Source: an uncultured virus (IMG/VR IMGVR_UViG_2061766007_000483)
Taxonomy: Duplodnaviria > Heunggongvirae > Uroviricota > Caudoviricetes
Direction: 5' to 3' (one strand)
IMG/VR virus record: IMGVR_UViG_2061766007_000483
Length of the DNA: 63,748 nt
Below, in pieces: positions 30,902 through 56,570 of this stretch (within the stretch, counting starts at the first letter, position 1; every line of letters starts with the position of its first letter). Position numbers and translations under genes: made by a program. The notes under the pieces were generated by a model that was not told the origin of the DNA, did no database searches, and saw only the letters and a program-made list of their open reading frames with translations.

Positions 30902-31654
30902 TCAGAAAAGTTTTTTTGTCGCTTCATCAATTCGTTGTTTCGCTATCTCAAAATATTTTTTCTCAATCTCAATGCCTATAAATTTCCTATCAGTATTCAC
31001 GCAGGCGACACCCGTGCTGCCGCTGCCCATTGTGTTGTCAAGCACAATATCTCCCTCATTCGTATATGTCCTGATGAGGCATTCAAGGAGGTCAACGGGT
31101 TTCTGCGTGGGGTGAACCGCCTTGCTCGGATGAGGTTTCTGATATGTCAGTATGCTTGTCGGGTATTTCATATCATCACTCGTATCGCATTCCATAGGTT
31201 TGTATTCACCATAGTTGTTGTTTGTAAGTACTTTTTTGAACAATGCGGTTCCTTTGCTGTGGTTAGGTTCACCTTTTATTTTCTGCGGGTTGTATGTCGG
31301 TTTGCTTCTGTAAAACACGGCAATCTGCTCGTGAACTCTCAATGGCATAATCTTTGCGTTAAGGAAACCGCTTTTCAGTTTCTTGTCCCATACGATGTCA
31401 TAACGGAAGTTTTCCCTGTTGGAGTTAACCAAATCAACATAGAACAGACCCTGCGCAAAAAGGACTATCGCCGCCGATTCCTTCGCAATCCTGTTGTAAT
31501 GCGCCCACAGTTCATCAAACGGAATGGTCGCATCCCATTTGTTGTGCGTGGTTCCATACGGCAAATCGCAAAGAACCATATCAACACTCCCGTCAGGTAT
31601 CTGATTCATCACCTCAAGGCAATCTCCGTTATACAACTTGCACTCGCTCATCAA
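30902..31654 (-). CDS. N4/N6 DNA methyltransferase (beta class)
   Basis: CDLPYG, HPTQKP, DNTMGSGST. Confidence 0.93.
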   Translation of the reverse strand: MMSECKLYNGDCLEVMNQIPDGSVDMVLCDLPYGTTHNKWDATIPFDELWAHYNRIAKESAAIVLFAQGLFYVDLVNSNRENFRYDIVWDKKLKSGFLNAKIMPLRVHEQIAVFYRSKPTYNPQKIKGEPNHSKGTALFKKVLTNNNYGEYKPMECDTSDDMKYPTSILTYQKPHPSKAVHPTQKPVDLLECLIRTYTNEGDIVLDNTMGSGSTGVACVNTDRKFIGIEIEKKYFEIAKQRIDEATKKLF

Positions 31655-32631
31655 AAAAGTCTTTTTTTCGCTTCGTCAATTCTATCATTTGCAACCATAT
31701 AGTATTTGCGGTCAAGTTCAATCCCTATGAAGTTCCTTCCCGTGTTCACGCAGGCGACTCCCGTAGAACCGCTGCCCATACAGTTGTCAAGGACAGTCTC
31801 ACCTTCGTTACTGTGCGTCCTTATCAGAAATTCAAGGAGCGGGACAGGTTTCTGCATCGGGTGATAACCCGTCTCTCTGTTGAACCGCAATACGCTCCTC
31901 GGATAACCTGTCTTTGTCTGCCTGTATTCATCACGCATTTTTTCCAAACCTATATGCTTCAGGCGTCCGCCTTTCCCTTTGTTTGAAAGGGTGACGTCTG
32001 TTTCCGACAGTTCCATATTGTATGTGACGGAACCGTTTTTCTCGGCAAGTATCTCGTCATACCTATCCTCTATGCCGAACGTCCCGCAGAGCAGTTTCCA
32101 CTGCTCCCTTGTCGGCAACTGCTTTCCGCTTATCTTGTTAGACAACCAACCTGTAGGGTTCCCGTTTTTAGACTTGACGAGCATACTTACTGAAGTGAAA
32201 GAAAGTCCGAGTCGTTCCATATTGTCCGTTATGATTTTTGAAAACCCCATAAACGGAGGAATTGAATAGAATACGGAAACAGTTTCGTGTACTTTCATCG
32301 GTTGCTTGTTCACAAGTTGAAAATTTCCGCAGTTGTTCTTTTCCCACACCCAATCGTATTTGTACATAGACGGGTTGCTCAACCTCAACGAAGAGGCGAA
32401 CGGTTCGCTGCCGAAAAGCAGAACTGTCCCGTAGGGTTTCAAAACCCTTCTGTAATGCTCCCATAGTATGTCGAGTGGAATGCTTTTGTCCCATTTGCAG
32501 GCGGTCGTACCGTATGGCAAATCGCACAGCACAAGGTCTATGCTGTTGTCTGGTATCTCGTTCATAACTTCAAGGCAGTCCCCATTGTAAAGTATCGTTT
32601 CGCTCATAATTCCATCGCTATGTTTTGTCAA
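31651..32631 (-). CDS. N4/N6 DNA methyltransferase with inserted HTH-like domain
   Basis: CDLPYG, HPMQKP, DNCMGSGST; about 70 aa longer than its paralogs. Confidence 0.92.
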   Translation of the reverse strand: MTKHSDGIMSETILYNGDCLEVMNEIPDNSIDLVLCDLPYGTTACKWDKSIPLDILWEHYRRVLKPYGTVLLFGSEPFASSLRLSNPSMYKYDWVWEKNNCGNFQLVNKQPMKVHETVSVFYSIPPFMGFSKIITDNMERLGLSFTSVSMLVKSKNGNPTGWLSNKISGKQLPTREQWKLLCGTFGIEDRYDEILAEKNGSVTYNMELSETDVTLSNKGKGGRLKHIGLEKMRDEYRQTKTGYPRSVLRFNRETGYHPMQKPVPLLEFLIRTHSNEGETVLDNCMGSGSTGVACVNTGRNFIGIELDRKYYMVANDRIDEAKKRLF

Positions 32632-33404
32632 AAAAGTTTCTTTGTTGCATTGTTTGTTCTTTCCTCTTTTTTTGCATTGTTTATTCTTTCCTCCGCTATT
32701 TTGAAGTATTTCTCTTCAAGTTCAATTCCAATGAAGTTGCGGTTCAGGTTCACACAGGCGACACCAGTGGAACCACTGCCCATACAGTTGTCCAACACAG
32801 TATATCCTTCTTTGGTATAGGTCTTGATTAGGTATTCAAGCAAGGCAACGGGTTTCTGCGTCGGATGGAATTTCTCGGTGTCTTTGTCAAACCGCAGCAA
32901 CTGTTTCGGATACCCAGTCTGTGTTTGCACAAACGACTGCGGTTTCCTATTGGGTCTGAATGAAACCGCACAAGGTCTGTCAACAATTTCCTTATAACAA
33001 TCAAGTAGTCCTTGTGGGTAGTAATTCATCTTCAACTTGGCGTTCGGCGCGATTTTTCCTTCACTGAACACGCTTATCGTTTCTATATTTTTCAATGGCA
33101 TATAAGGTGCTTGTGGGAAATTCGCAAAAGTATTTTTATGCCAATACCAATCATATTTGTACCAATCTACATTGGACATTCTGATGTATGACGCGAACGG
33201 TTCGTTTCCAAACAGAAGAACGGAACCCCCGTCTCTCAATACTTTTTTATAGAACTCCCACAATTTTTCCATCGGAATTTGCACATCCCATTTGCTTTCT
33301 ATGTATCCGTATGGCAAATCACACAGCACAAGGTCAATGCTCTTGTCGGGTATGTCCTTCATCACTTCAAGGCAGTCCCCATTATAGAGTGTGTTCGTTG
33401 TCAT
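32628..33404 (-). CDS. N4/N6 DNA methyltransferase
   Basis: CDLPYG, HPTQKP, DNCMGSGST; start MTTNTLY. Confidence 0.92.
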   Translation of the reverse strand: MTTNTLYNGDCLEVMKDIPDKSIDLVLCDLPYGYIESKWDVQIPMEKLWEFYKKVLRDGGSVLLFGNEPFASYIRMSNVDWYKYDWYWHKNTFANFPQAPYMPLKNIETISVFSEGKIAPNAKLKMNYYPQGLLDCYKEIVDRPCAVSFRPNRKPQSFVQTQTGYPKQLLRFDKDTEKFHPTQKPVALLEYLIKTYTKEGYTVLDNCMGSGSTGVACVNLNRNFIGIELEEKYFKIAEERINNAKKEERTNNATKKLF

Positions 33405-33411
33405 AGCAAAA

Positions 33412-33864
33412 TCAGAAATTACCTGTTGAACCAACGCCTCCCCTGTCCTTGTTTCCGAAGGAGTACACTTTCTCCATAGAAACACCACGGGAAAACAACC
33501 ATTTGATTTTCTGCCATACACTTGCGTGCTGCGTAAGTTGTATCCTGAACTGCATCACCCTCGCACCTGCGGGAATGAAGGAGTCCGTTGTTGGATAAAA
33601 AAGGCATTTCCATTCATCACCATCCCCGCAATATGAGCAATCAATCACGCCCATACCATTCACAAGAAGCACCTTGTACTTGCTGAATGTAGATGAGCGT
33701 GGGAGCAGGTGCGCCTCATATCCTTTCGGAAGTTCAACGCAGATTCCGAGCGGTATCATAACATACTCGCCTTTTTTCAACATCACATCCTCTGGCACCA
33801 CCACATCAAACCAATCTCCACCTTCTATTCTTTTTATGCCCGCATTGTGATGGCAGGTGCGGTA
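33412..33864 (-). CDS. dut: Trimeric dUTPase (5' end lost in gap)
   Basis: GDWFD, PRSS, GVIDCSYCG, RVMQ, RGGVGSTG. Confidence 0.9.
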   Translation of the reverse strand, partial: YRTCHHNAGIKRIEGGDWFDVVVPEDVMLKKGEYVMIPLGICVELPKGYEAHLLPRSSTFSKYKVLLVNGMGVIDCSYCGDGDEWKCLFYPTTDSFIPAGARVMQFRIQLTQHASVWQKIKWLFSRGVSMEKVYSFGNKDRGGVGSTGNF

Positions 33865-34372: not shown

Positions 34373-34624
34373 TTATTTGAGGGAATTTAGAAGTTCGCAA
34401 AATTTCTTGAAATCATCGTTGCTCTCAAATTGGATTACGGCGTTTATGTTGTTCGCCTCCGAACAAATCTTTATCGTGTTCTTCCTGTCATAGCGGGTCT
34501 TCGCAGATTGGACGTGAATGACTGTCCCGTCACCGCTCTCATAGATGAAAGACTTGTTCACCTCATCATTGATGAACATCCCGTTGTTTGTCTCGTTCGG
34601 ACTCTTTCCTGTCAAATCGCTCAT
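34373..34624 (-). CDS. Hypothetical protein
   Basis: 83 aa. Confidence 0.55.
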   Translation of the reverse strand: MSDLTGKSPNETNNGMFINDEVNKSFIYESGDGTVIHVQSAKTRYDRKNTIKICSEANNINAVIQFESNDDFKKFCELLNSLK

Positions 34625-34635
34625 ATCTGTTTGTT

Positions 34636-35490
34636 TTACATATTTATATCAATCAGTTCCTTGCATAGTTTCTGTGCGTCAGGGTGTGCTGCGCTGTCAT
34701 TCCTCATTTTGATGAACCTGCTCCAACCCGTTCCTTCAACCCCCCACACTCCGCATTGGTATAGTTCGGTGGCAAGACAAAGCGGAAGCAGTTCCCTCGC
34801 CTCCTGTGGTTTCAGACCTCTGTTCCGCATAACCGTATAGACAGTCTCACTATGTTCAAGGTTCCGTTCAAACAGGTCGTCATTGTCCTTGTTGTTCCCA
34901 TACCAATAGGGTTTGACAAACTGCATATTGTTTTTTGTCTCATCCACATAACGGGTTGATTTCATAAGTGATGACAGGGTGATATGTGTCCTGAACTCAT
35001 CGGCGATTCCCCTTGAACACAACCAAGCGAACGTCTTGCGTTCAACGAAGCAGTCACTTATATCGGTGTCATTGAATGTGTTTCCGACAACCTCATAGTC
35101 TTTGAGGATTTTTAGTGAGTTTGCCATAACCTCATCAGCGGGCAGTTTGCCTTTTGCCAAAGCGCTGACAGACTCAACGACCACACGGAAGTTGGTCGTG
35201 ACACACACAACACTTTTTATTGTTTTAACAATGGAGAACTTGTTCTTCATTATCATATTGAACGCGATGCTCAAATATCCATAACTCCCGTCGGCAACAA
35301 GTTTGCAGGTTCCAAATTCAAGAGGTCTCAAATGCCCCCTTGCAATCATCTCCGTCACGAACTTTTTCGGGTCTTGGTGGGATGACTTCCTGTTGTAGCA
35401 GATGCCCGCGCAATAGTCAATGTGGGCGAGCATCCCGTCAATTCCGTCACCTTGTATGATTTCCCTTACACTTGAATCAATTAGTTGCAT
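34636..35490 (-). CDS. thyX: Flavin-dependent thymidylate synthase
   Basis: GHLRPLEF, SRGIADEFRTH, STRYV, EARELLP, AHPD. Confidence 0.88.
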   Translation of the reverse strand: MQLIDSSVREIIQGDGIDGMLAHIDYCAGICYNRKSSHQDPKKFVTEMIARGHLRPLEFGTCKLVADGSYGYLSIAFNMIMKNKFSIVKTIKSVVCVTTNFRVVVESVSALAKGKLPADEVMANSLKILKDYEVVGNTFNDTDISDCFVERKTFAWLCSRGIADEFRTHITLSSLMKSTRYVDETKNNMQFVKPYWYGNNKDNDDLFERNLEHSETVYTVMRNRGLKPQEARELLPLCLATELYQCGVWGVEGTGWSRFIKMRNDSAAHPDAQKLCKELIDINM

Positions 35491-35499
35491 AGTATGTTT

Positions 35500-36729
35500 T
35501 TATTGTGGTATTTCTGTTTGACTGTAAAACATATCATCAAAACTCTTGTTATTTCCGAGACCTCCGAGTGCGCTCGCATTCTCCTGTGCGGTTGACTGCG
35601 GGATGTTGCTGTATCTTGGGGTCGCGTCCGCAAGCGCCACCATTGATGACGCACCGTCTTTCATTATCATTCCCGTTTCCTCAATGCGCATTTTCCTGTA
35701 ATTGATGTTCATCTCAATTCGGTCGTTCTTGCCCATACCGTCACGGATTTTCAATATCTTCAACATATACCTCTGCTCGGTTCTCATATCAGGTGTCTGT
35801 ATGATACCATAGATTGTGTCGGCGGTGTAAATGAGACCCGCAGATTCAGCGATGCCGCTCATCGTTATATCTTCCGAGTCAAACGCGCCCCTGTTGGACT
35901 GTGTGGCGGTCACGATAAGGCATTCCTGTCTCACAGCGATTGCGCGCAAGTCCTCCGAAATCTGCTTGATTTTGTTATAGGTGTCCTCCGAGTTCATATT
36001 TCGGTAGTTCGCCATAATGTTGATGTAGTCAATCACGACCACATCAACCTTGAAACCCTCCACTTCCTGAATATGTTTGATGTAGTTCTCAACATCAATG
36101 GTCGTGCAGCAAGAGGTCGGATATTCCCTGATGAACATACGTCCCATCGGCAATATCTGTTTCTGCCTTATGTCGGAAATCTTTTTCGCCATACCGTCAA
36201 TGTCAACAGACTCCCTGTCATACATATCTATGTTGATGTCAAACATATTGGCGCCCATTCTCTTGATGACCTTCTTGGCGGACATCTCACAAGTGATGAA
36301 CAGGACGTTCTTTCCGCTCCGCACAAAGGAGACTGCATCGTTGCAGAGAAATATGCTGTTGTGACTCAAAAACCCATTTGTGTAGTATCGGTGGAAGTCA
36401 TCGTCAACTTCAATGTCATACATATTCTCAACATCTCCCGTGTTGGTGACTGACGACACAAGTTCAACACCGCTCTCGGTCTGTATGTAGTCGGGTCGTG
36501 AATCCTTGTTGAGGTCTTTTGCAAAAACCTCATCAAACTCCGTGTCAAAAAGTATATGGGTGTCAGCGCACCGCAGTGTCCTTCCATTTTCGGTTTTCAC
36601 CTCCCACACCTCGTAAGGCACAGTCATACCGATTGCCTTGATTGGTCTGTAACCGTTGTCGGTCTTTATCTCCCAATCACTGACATCAAACTTCTCAACA
36701 AATTTTCTATAAGGTTGGACTGCTTCCAT
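35500..36729 (-). CDS. C-terminal fragment of gp41/DnaB-like helicase fused behind a C-intein fragment
   Basis: aa 1-124 are HINT-like, ending YYTNGFLSHN/S; then SIFLCN, ITCEM, VVVIDY, TATQSNR, IAESAG, LKIRDG; no Walker A GK and no N-terminal domain. Confidence 0.92.
   Translation of the reverse strand: MEAVQPYRKFVEKFDVSDWEIKTDNGYRPIKAIGMTVPYEVWEVKTENGRTLRCADTHILFDTEFDEVFAKDLNKDSRPDYIQTESGVELVSSVTNTGDVENMYDIEVDDDFHRYYTNGFLSHNSIFLCNDAVSFVRSGKNVLFITCEMSAKKVIKRMGANMFDINIDMYDRESVDIDGMAKKISDIRQKQILPMGRMFIREYPTSCCTTIDVENYIKHIQEVEGFKVDVVVIDYINIMANYRNMNSEDTYNKIKQISEDLRAIAVRQECLIVTATQSNRGAFDSEDITMSGIAESAGLIYTADTIYGIIQTPDMRTEQRYMLKILKIRDGMGKNDRIEMNINYRKMRIEETGMIMKDGASSMVALADATPRYSNIPQSTAQENASALGGLGNNKSFDDMFYSQTEIPQ
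36358..36729 (-). other. Split intein C-fragment (atypical split, 124 aa)
   Basis: Block B CADTH, block F MYDIEV, block G SHN followed by Ser+1; block A absent. Confidence 0.88.
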
Positions 36730-36805
36730 AGTGTATTGTCTTATACACTAAAATAACAAAAAGATTGTGGTTTTTTATAAAGCGGTGACAAATTTTTACG
36801 AGAAA

Positions 36806-37357
36806 TCAAATCGCAAGTTTTATCTCAACTTCCTGCGCCCTGAACGTGCAGGAGAATGTTTTCATATCAATCGTGTTGCTTGAAAAGTTGAAGTCAACTC
36901 CATCAATGCTTGTGAACAGGACGTTCTTGAACTCTATTGAGAACACATCATATCCGTTCCCGTCCATCACACGGAGGTAGGGAACGCCAGGGATGAACTT
37001 GTCCTCGCTTGAAGAATAGTAGTAATGGAACAAGTCAAGCATAAGAAAGTAGTTCACATATCCGTCATAGAGCATATTGGTTATTGTGAACTCCTTTGAT
37101 GTCAGTCTTTCGGGTGAGAACGGGGAGCGGTAGATTCTCGTGTAGGGTGTCTTGCGGTCATACTGCTCAACCACGTCAAACTGCGTGTTCTGCAAGTTGA
37201 ACCCCTGAATGCCGTAGTTCACGAAGTCAATACAGCGTTCAAACATCCCGCCTGGTATCCTTGTCAGATAAGGCATATACCTCTCGTCAATCTCCTGCGG
37301 GATAAAGGTCTTTGAGAAAAAGAACTCAAATTGGTTGTTTCTTGCGGGTAGTAACAT
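36806..37357 (-). CDS. Tail tube/baseplate-hub-like structural protein
   Basis: Late promoter at 37396; IEFKNVLFTSIDG.DF...TFSCTF resembles the gp19/gp54 fold. Confidence 0.55.
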   Translation of the reverse strand: MLLPARNNQFEFFFSKTFIPQEIDERYMPYLTRIPGGMFERCIDFVNYGIQGFNLQNTQFDVVEQYDRKTPYTRIYRSPFSPERLTSKEFTITNMLYDGYVNYFLMLDLFHYYYSSSEDKFIPGVPYLRVMDGNGYDVFSIEFKNVLFTSIDGVDFNFSSNTIDMKTFSCTFRAQEVEIKLAI

Positions 37358-37398
37358 ATCTATCTATTTTCCAAAAATATGATATATCAATGATGTAT

Positions 37399-37578
37399 TT
37401 ATAATTTCGGCAGGAACCAACTCTCGCTCCAAGTGGTGTCCTGTGTCCACTGCTGCACGTCAGGAACCGAAACCGACGGAACTTCAAATGACACACAGAA
37501 CCATATAAGAACAATCGCAGCAAGCAACCACAGGACGACCATCTGTTTTGAAAATGCAATGTCAATCTCTTTCATCAT
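37399..37578 (-). CDS. 59-aa single-TM protein
   Basis: Manual translation MMKEIDIAFSKQMVVLWLLAAIVLIWFCVS...; coupled to the upstream stop. Confidence 0.5.
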   Translation of the reverse strand: MMKEIDIAFSKQMVVLWLLAAIVLIWFCVSFEVPSVSVPDVQQWTQDTTWSESWFLPKL

Positions 37579-38471
37579 TATTGGTGTTGAATGTTGAATA
37601 CGGGTCTTTGCGGATAGTCGGCGCTCACGTCAAATGCGTCAACCTCCTCAATGGTTTCCAATGCGTTCACCTGAACCTTGTGCTGTGCGGTGACATTGTA
37701 GCAATCTGTCGCATAGATTTCAAGGGCGGCGAGCATCTGTCTCGCCTCATCTATATTGAGTGTGATATAAAGACCGCTGAACCAAATGTTCACGTTCTCC
37801 CTTCCGACGATTACTGCGGAATTAAGGGTATTGACCAATCCCGTTCTTGTGTCCTTGTCCAACCACAGCAGTGTGTCGCCCAAGAAGAAACCGTTCACAT
37901 TCTCCGAGATGTCATACACGTCAATCTCACGGAGTTTGTTCCTCTTGTGCGCTTCAAGGGTGTCGTCCGTGCTGACAATCTGTTGGAAGTATGCGTTCGC
38001 GGATTCCACGATTGCATTTATTTCAGTTTCGGTCTCCGCCGCATCAATGAGCGGGATGCACTCCTTCACCTTGTCACGGCACAGTTTGCCGATACGCAGG
38101 AAGTCATCTGCGGTTTTGAGAACCTCATCGTCCGTATAGACGGAATCCTCCCTTGACGGTTTATAAACACTGCTTGCGATTGCATCGCAGAAACCGAGAA
38201 CATCAACCTTGCTTCCAAGTGTTGAGCGACTTGCCATCTCAACATTATTCTTCGCGTTCTCACGGAGAACGTCAATGGGAGGAACATAAGGAGGGTTCAA
38301 CTCACATCTCTCTATTTCTTGGATGCTTGCAGTTGGGTGTTCAAGGTAGAAGTCTATCTGTTCACTTGTCATCTCCCTGAAATTCCCGTTCAGTTCTGTG
38401 TCCACGGACTCGGTAAAGATGGAAATTGACCGAGGATGATTGTTTATTATTTTGAAATAGTAATAGTTCAT
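37578..38471 (-). CDS. DUF4376-like tail fibre-associated protein
   Basis: YDISENVNGF, WLDKDTR, LEIYATDCYNVTAQHK, YP; late promoter at 38480. Confidence 0.7.
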   Translation of the reverse strand: MNYYYFKIINNHPRSISIFTESVDTELNGNFREMTSEQIDFYLEHPTASIQEIERCELNPPYVPPIDVLRENAKNNVEMASRSTLGSKVDVLGFCDAIASSVYKPSREDSVYTDDEVLKTADDFLRIGKLCRDKVKECIPLIDAAETETEINAIVESANAYFQQIVSTDDTLEAHKRNKLREIDVYDISENVNGFFLGDTLLWLDKDTRTGLVNTLNSAVIVGRENVNIWFSGLYITLNIDEARQMLAALEIYATDCYNVTAQHKVQVNALETIEEVDAFDVSADYPQRPVFNIQHQ

Positions 38472-55826: not shown

Positions 55827-56570
55827 TCAGAACAATCTCTTGTTCGCCGCATCCAATCTTTTCTTCGCTATGTCAAAATAAGTTTTATCAAGTTCAATAC
55901 CGATAAAATTGCGGTCGGTGTTAATGCACGCGACTCCCGTAGAACCACTGCCCATCGTATTGTCCATTACAGTGTCGCCCTCATTAGTGTATGTCCGTAT
56001 TAAATATTCAAGCAAAGCAACGGGTTTCTGTGTGGGGTGCAACCCAACTTCCGTGTTGAACTTTTGATATGATGACGGCACACGTTCCTCCGTAAGCACA
56101 AGGTTTTCCTTTTTGTCAAAGTCACGGTAGTTCGATGATGAAGTGTCAAACGATATGCTGTACTTAACACGGTCAACACCTCCGCCCGTGCGCTCCTGCA
56201 TCTGCTTGTTGTAAGTCCATTTGCCTTTTGAGAAGCACAATATGCTTTCGTGTTCTTTCATAGGTTCTCTCACCGTATTCGCGAAGTTGCTTCCTCTGTT
56301 CTTAATCCAAATCCACTCGTGACGAAACATCTTCAAGTTAGACACAACTAACATTGATGAAAACGGTTGCCCGCCGAACAAACATATCATAGCATTCTCC
56401 TTGCACACTCTGTCATACGATTCCCACAGTTTGTCAAATGGTATGACAATATCCCACTTATTACTCGTTATGCCGTATGGAAGGTCGCATATAACACAGT
56501 CAACGCTATGCTCTTCCAAACTCGCCATCACGTCAAGACATTCTCCGTTGTATAGTTGTAACTTGCTCAT
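55827..56570 (-). CDS. N4/N6 DNA methyltransferase
   Basis: CDLPYG, HPTQKP, DNTMGSGST. Confidence 0.93.
   Translation of the reverse strand: MSKLQLYNGECLDVMASLEEHSVDCVICDLPYGITSNKWDIVIPFDKLWESYDRVCKENAMICLFGGQPFSSMLVVSNLKMFRHEWIWIKNRGSNFANTVREPMKEHESILCFSKGKWTYNKQMQERTGGGVDRVKYSISFDTSSSNYRDFDKKENLVLTEERVPSSYQKFNTEVGLHPTQKPVALLEYLIRTYTNEGDTVMDNTMGSGSTGVACINTDRNFIGIELDKTYFDIAKKRLDAANKRLF

Follow-up and report, generated by a model that had tools for sequence, protein, structure and literature searches.

In the model of Dassa et al. (2009), an intein is invaded by an endonuclease, the endonuclease is lost and the intein halves are finally uncoupled (PMC2677866). For uncoupling (step IV), the accessible text of that paper cites only cyanobacterial DnaE and the Nanoarchaeum equitans polymerase. 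The gp41 helicase inteins described there have short C-parts, of the 33–54-aa class; P-SSM2 position 356 is the break site of gp41-1 to gp41-7, and for gp41-8 and gp41-9 the same text says only that the site differs. In our literature search, which covered mainly papers outside subscription, we found neither an atypical split at the Walker A of gp41 nor a phage whose halves lie far apart; the accessible part of a paper on the Jug phage mentions inteins and not the helicase (PMC12880540).

We analysed a 63,748-nucleotide stretch of DNA (‘the window’) from an uncultured virus (Caudoviricetes; IMG/VR IMGVR_UViG_2061766007_000483). A first-pass annotation, made from the letters of the window, had described a replicative helicase gene beginning with 124 residues of HINT sequence and continuing with SIFLCN and the remaining SF4 motifs (Table 1). 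On rereading, the motifs IKTDNGY, CADTH, MYDIEV and YYTNGFLSHN were all found within the first 124 residues of the ORF, and Pfam, PHROG and a structural model agreed with this division. DnaB_C (PF03796) matched residues 136–342 above the cut-off (E = 1.2e-15) and the DnaB-like helicase family phrog_19 matched residues 125–353 (E = 5.8e-50), while the Pfam Intein_splicing match was weak and under the cut-off (E = 8e-5). In the AlphaFold model (mean pLDDT 78.7), residues 124–353 superposed on residues 203–432 of T4 gp41 (PDB 8DTP; Z 25.3, rmsd 2.5, 224 residues aligned), in keeping with an SF4 motor of RecA fold. Residues ~4–123 superposed on the inteins VidaL (Z 14.0), CatC (Z 12.6) and gp41-1 (Z 12.6), and the HINT fold was recovered against many intein structures (Z 11–14 over 104–114 residues). 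These intein superpositions begin 18–38 residues into each solved structure, which indicates that block A and the first strands are absent from the ORF.

Also missing, as had been noted at first pass, are the helicase N-domain and the GK of Walker A: only gp41 residues 203–432 found a counterpart in the model. Neither the ORF nor the rest of the window holds the N-terminal domain and a complete Walker A motif, and a separate gene supplies both in the related genomes G001, G006 and G008. Lysine 203 and serine 204 of T4 gp41 align at the boundary of intein and helicase, and an intein-free ortholog of 435 aa, from a 462-kb phage record, reads GIGK|SIWLCN there after an N-half of 200 aa, so the proposed GK|S junction agrees with both T4 gp41 and intact orthologs. 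The ORF is confirmed as an intein C-fragment (IntC) followed by a gp41-type helicase from just after the Walker A lysine.

Residues His58, Asp105, His123, Asn124 and Ser125 were invariant among 46 aligned C-halves. Block B of most inteins has a Thr, which is Ala here; the class 1 intein residues are all present, Cys1 being supplied by the N-halves of relatives. We also observed a DLNxxxRP motif in an intein loop (ORF residues 72–80, positions 36490–36516), which 112 of the 120 best homologs retain and the contiguous intein protein P0167 lacks.

Table 1 Features of the split helicase gene, its surroundings and related split loci (positions in the window unless a locus is named).
Feature	Position	Strand	Basis
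IntC–helicase C-half gene, 409 aa	35500..36729	-	Pfam/PHROG; CADxH and HN-S in 119 of top 120 homologs
Large IntC, aa 1–124, without block A, net charge -13	36358..36729	-	Aligns to P0167 250–362
Block B CADTH; His58 invariant; usual Thr replaced by Ala, as in VidaL	36556..36570	-	Homolog alignment
Block F Asp105, invariant	36415..36417	-	46 aligned homologs
Block G His123-Asn124 and Ser+1 (Ser125, Walker A serine, T4 gp41 S204)	36355..36363	-	Alignments, model
C-extein: RecA-fold motor of gp41/DnaB type, starting at the Walker A serine, Walker B DYINI, motifs to residue 353, low-confidence tail	35503..36357	-	PHROG, AlphaFold model
5' signals: in-frame TAG 36748–36750, TTTTTGTTAT 36753–36762, AT-rich hairpin 36730–36749 abutting ATG	36730..36762	-	Sequence, orthologs
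Upstream unrelated gene, 183 aa	36806..37357	-	No Pfam or PHROG match
ThyX (Thy1), begins 9 bases past the helicase stop; also adjacent in L001 and L003	34636..35490	-	Pfam
TerL split halves in G011	L227 1–1932; L229 1366–1857	minus	Sequence comparison
recA/uvsX split-intein loci	L012 7100–7753, L014 8124–8786, L017 6872–7444, L018 6480–7190, L093 9002–9748, L094 9071–9751

The window, a scaffold with gaps, contains 12 runs of N, each of 10–75 bases, and shows no N-half; on these two points, the gene might be taken for an orphan or an assembly artefact in a phage that replicates with another or a host helicase. We regard this as extremely unlikely. Part of the window sequence was held by 20 of 24 listed runs from 14 studies; those with an organism recorded were bovine, sheep or unspecified gut metagenomes, and the source is a large phage from the gut of cattle and sheep. 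A single 11-kb contig from another study (X3) covers positions 34400–38400, and contigs from two further studies (X6 and X8) cover the junction at 36729–36806. None of the three shows a joint or an indel at the locus and all leave the start and stop of the ORF unchanged, which answers the call for a read-mapping check on a misjoin there. An RNA run (X18) yielded two short pieces, both outside the ORF and its 5' end.

A pseudogene, which had been named as another refuting outcome, is likewise at odds with the substitutions. All nine strain differences inside the ORF were synonymous (9/9, among the 40 of 71 differences listed), and dN was far below dS in both intein and helicase parts; against the ortholog in L003, IntC gave dN 0.058 versus dS 1.78, with dS saturated in most other pairs. 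The ORF is under purifying selection. Its protein has 709 homologs, the top 120 being 304–494 aa long; none of these (0/120) has a Walker A motif ahead of the intein. The orthologs in L001–L003 begin at the same position beside different upstream genes and DNA. One homolog, P0003, is identical to the window protein over its first 136 residues and 87% identical overall, and may be a recombinant allele.

The first-pass annotation had further proposed that the helicase is assembled from two genes lying more than 27 kb apart. The window ends 27 and 35 kb from the ORF, and a tblastn search of it with seven N-halves found none (best E = 0.04); neither an N-half nor an endonuclease lies beside the ORF. 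A single-protein scan of viral contigs and an alignment scan of GTDB genomes found no relative. With the N-half of the intact ortholog as query, 18 proteins were recovered, 10 of them 230–239 aa long and ending in GK-C plus 32–42 residues. A profile of gut-clade N-halves was then run against representatives at 50% identity: the best 150 of 870 matches comprised 88 intact proteins (GK-S/T), 44 split N-halves, two contiguous mini-inteins (P0167 and P0251) and 16 that the regular expression left unclassed. The partner that had been expected, ending in GxGK-C plus about 15–40 residues, does exist in relatives, as an N-half of ~200 aa with GK-C and an N-terminal intein fragment (IntN) of 27–49 aa (70 proteins). 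IntC is 118–177 aa long (117 proteins). Cys1 was invariant in 47 aligned N-halves. IntN is positively charged in 54 of 70 proteins (mean +2.6) and IntC negatively charged in 117 of 117 (mean -12.6). The two fragments tile a natural contiguous intein, since the IntN of G006 matches P0167 at 201–234 (38%) and the window IntC matches it from 250 (43%).

Uncoupled halves at separate loci of one genome were found in three relatives. In G006 (413,021 bp; CheckV 100%), the N-half with IntN lies at 374,980–375,678 and the C-half, 71% identical to the window ORF, at 299,129–300,349, 75 kb away. The fragment G008 has the same 75-kb layout and an IntN tail identical to that of G006, hence the two count as one lineage. 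In G001 (387,654 bp; 93%), N-half (166,782–167,477) and C-half (324,495–325,823) are 157 kb apart. The long-range separation proposed at first pass therefore holds for relatives; for this phage, the observation is that no partner lies within the window. PF03796 was matched above the cut-off once per record in all three genomes (3/3), always by the split C-half, with one additional weak match under the cut-off in G001; there is no intact second helicase copy in any of them. Four of the 10 relatives’ records searched, G002, G007, G009 and G010, all 33–70% complete, yielded no partner, and four more records reached through TerL and topoisomerase contained neither helicase half. IntN showed pN of 0.055–0.267 against pS of 0.40–0.80 in six of six pairs, indicating purifying selection in the uncoupled state.

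In G006, L090, L093 and L094, the N-half lies between recA/uvsX and metallophosphoesterase genes, an order that is also found around intact orthologs, suggesting that the C-half is the part that moved; the N-half of G001 has other neighbours. Genes shared by the window and G006 are heavily shuffled, and long-range rearrangement, apparently common in the clade, would readily uncouple the halves.

Of the 85 helicase loci then compared (L001–L085, some of them near-duplicates), 64 have an intact gene, 12 a split gene with an adjacent N-half and nine no N-half in view; eight of the nine are in the clade of the window, and one has only 201 bases upstream. Seven of the 12 adjacent splits (L011/L012, L015/L016, L017, L018 and L019) carry between the halves an ORF of 360–410 aa with the motif E(F/I)NGDxWH; three (L014, L020 and L042) have gaps of 146–397 bp and the remaining two a 982-base gap. 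The intervening ORFs gave a weak match to the MTES_1575 endonuclease in three of four tested, and from their motif we read them as probable members of the Vsr-like family of Dassa. As judged from sequence, the wider family appears to show the whole path of the 2009 model: intact gene, contiguous intein, halves flanking a Vsr-like endonuclease, halves with the endonuclease lost, and uncoupled halves.

Outside the gut clade of the window, the split is sporadic. Split and intact rows interleave on the N-extein tree (122 rows, 29 changes, at least 12 forced), a quick tree from which we excluded rows without a Walker A found by regular expression or with an N-extein outside 185–235 aa, and on the C-extein tree (83 rows, 19 changes, at least 10 forced). 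Within the gut clade, all 14 N rows (SH-aLRT 96) and all 19 C rows (94) are split, the sequences having been found with split queries; intact helicases are absent from the top 120 homologs, and the intact loci compared are only 36–37% identical. We also weighed a horizontal transfer of the intein between distant clades: the gut clade (99) and the other main groups of the extein tree reappear on the IntC tree, so gain and loss within lineages appear to fit better.

Close relatives keep the front half of the helicase 75–157 kb away, so the halves are most likely joined as proteins. Given established intein chemistry and the invariant catalytic residues, class 1 trans-splicing very probably makes this joint and rebuilds the ATP-binding loop. 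A first gene, outside the window, would encode the N-domain and linker (~200 aa), ending at the Walker A lysine, and then a short basic IntN of ~30–40 aa with Cys1; the second, the ORF studied here, encodes the large acidic IntC, Ser+1 and the motor. IntN would dock into IntC, and a Cys1/Ser+1 reaction would excise the intein and restore the P-loop at GK|S, giving what may be the phage’s only replicative helicase, of the T4 gp41 type. A predicted fold of P0167 (alignment A5) has no bearing on this docking; its confidence was low over much of the intein, and A5 is misaligned there.

Splicing would be unneeded if the intein pieces acted only as docking tails and the halves assembled non-covalently, as in the fragmented NrdA of Aeh1. 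That account has a precedent, NrdA being a phage enzyme that a mobile endonuclease has fragmented (PMC3045599), and the replacement of the block B Thr by Ala is in its favour, but it leaves the invariance of all splicing residues across 46–47 diverse sequences unaccounted for. Moreover, the break parts the Walker A lysine from the serine, and an unspliced HINT domain would occupy the ATP-binding loop. We consider non-covalent assembly very unlikely and retain trans-splicing.

As for how the trans-spliced state arose, a free-standing Vsr-like endonuclease may have broken a mini-intein at Walker A and been lost after the break. In the gut clade, the C-half would then have moved out of the recA/uvsX–helicase–phosphoesterase operon and acquired 5' signals of its own. 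Adjacent halves could be homed into or replaced by one recombination and distant halves could not; the split may thus be locked in, as homing is closed to an unlinked intein and a single recombination with an intact allele would not remove it.

The 5' region of the ORF bears on a further suggestion, made at first pass as a gating of replication after translation: that separately transcribed halves, or condition-sensitive splicing, time the activation of the helicase. This would add to trans-splicing. The in-frame TAG described seven codons upstream of the start is in place. Reading it through as Gln does not restore an N-half, as the reading frame reaches only a TAA 16 codons upstream. The promoter-like motif reported at about 36749–36763 stands as a conserved gene-start motif: TTTTTGTTAT is kept in the orthologs of L001–L003, and five of its 10 occurrences in the window precede gene starts, against a background of 0.10. 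A sigma-70 scan found two sites versus 2.3 expected, no more than chance, which leaves the label ‘promoter’ unproven. The hairpin at the start codon is weak and not significant (z -1.2; -0.7 to -1.95 in four orthologous 5' regions).

We also observed TTTTTGTTAT 16–34 bases before five gene starts (window 30857, 36760, 44029, 56587 and 58667), and 14 of the 16 copies of TATAAATA in the window no more than 90 bases from an ORF start. In G006, TTTGTTAT was not enriched before genes (6/59). The late-promoter-like TATAAATA at 37396–37403 belongs, on our reading of the sequence, to the upstream gene. That gene is indeed unrelated to the helicase, as first described, its ortholog in G006 lying 61 kb from the IntC gene; the description ‘structural’ found no backing in Pfam or PHROG. 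Elsewhere in the window are DNA methyltransferase-like genes, three in tandem at 30902–33521, the first of which matches Pfam N6_N4_Mtase, and one distant at 55827–56570; the latter three were assigned by likeness.

In G006 the halves lie in different transcription contexts, which, with the conserved 5' motif of the C-half gene and the retention of DLNxxxRP in homologs of the split gene but not in the contiguous P0167, is what a regulatory role would lead one to expect. Against this, the intein is dispensed with by close relatives from other clades: among loci 72–89% identical to one split N-half, 77 of 80 are intact and three are split, and the interleaving of split and intact alleles on the trees is as for a selfish element. 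Regulation of the trans-spliced helicase is, on this balance, unlikely.

The helicase is not the only gene so affected. In G011, the closest relative found (TerL 76% and topoisomerase 80% identical), the Walker A site of TerL is interrupted by a related, atypically split intein whose IntC is 42% identical to the helicase IntC, with the halves ~35 kb apart. The same TerL site holds a contiguous intein in G001 and is free of inteins in both the window and G006. We observed, in addition, that recA/uvsX, which lies directly upstream of the helicase N-half, often has a second, canonically split intein with a C-part of ~40 aa. An ORF of ~337 aa lies between the recA/uvsX halves in L093 and L094, and recA/uvsX is intact in L090 and L091.

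These findings account for an apparently truncated helicase and an unannotated gene of 230 aa, without a Pfam match above the cut-off, in such jumbo-phage genomes. They also provide at least 44 diverse natural inteins, counted as 50%-identity clusters, with a short IntN, Cys1 and Ser+1; short-IntN split inteins are the format wanted for semi-synthesis. With one intein family at one site present in all stages, trees and laboratory work can put both the 2009 model and an irreversible ratchet to the test.

Set beside T4 gp41 (PDB 8DTP, 8DUE and 8GAO), the window protein has the same fold and motifs over the superposed region; gp41 is one polypeptide, whereas here the N-domain and the Walker A lysine are on another gene. 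Like this family, the fractured genes of Dassa et al., in the text available, are phage genes broken inside an intein with a Vsr-like endonuclease between, gp41 helicases being among the hosts, and gp41-7 is an endonuclease-lost form like the gap-only relatives here. The mark of a fractured gene, adjacent halves with an endonuclease or a scar, is absent at the window gene and present at loci of relatives. In contrast to the gp41 inteins of that text, the break in the window is at Walker A, IntN is short and uncoupled halves are seen in phages; those published inteins having a short IntC, the window intein is not among them, as the first-pass annotation had held (PMC2677866).

By split site and sequence, the intein appears instead to belong with the atypically split terminase inteins. 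AceL-TerL, GOS-TerL, Cat, VidaL and PolB16 have, in the accessible parts of the papers describing them, the same short IntN, long IntC and HINT fold, and the IntN length here is near that of AceL (25 aa) and Cat (30 aa) (PMC11766414, PMC10189870). The best PDB sequence match of the window IntC was VidaL (E = 1.4e-4), with CatC weak (E = 0.26); the atypical-intein structures used for comparison were 6VGV/6VGW and 6DSL. The atypical ‘Terminase’ C-intein of Dassa et al. (122 aa) has RKF, CADTHI, MYD and RYYT..LSHN in common with the window IntC, about 55 of 117 positions being alike by an eye count. The solved atypical inteins differ in that the host here is a gp41 helicase, identity is only 20–30% and a DLNxxxRP insert is conserved. 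The element is thus of a known kind at a new host site, the Walker A of gp41; what is new, within the literature covered here, is the uncoupled state in a phage, the presence of all intermediates and a second case in TerL.

Cyanobacterial dnaE and Nanoarchaeum equitans polB are, as here, essential replication proteins encoded by two unlinked genes with intein pieces, apparently irreversibly so (PMC2677866, available text). They are cellular polymerases with canonical split sites, and that text describes no surviving intermediates, whereas the present case is a phage helicase, split at an atypical site, with all intermediates present in relatives. Tentatively, and as one possibility that we would not rate as the likelier outcome, the gut jumbo-phage clade might be the viral counterpart of cyanobacterial split dnaE: an essential replication gene kept permanently in distant halves, with every intermediate alive in relatives, the uncoupling repeated in TerL, several related split inteins (helicase, TerL and UvsX) kept orthogonal, and separate promoters or conditional splicing perhaps timing helicase activation. 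If so, such phages run several related split inteins at once, and these must stay orthogonal.
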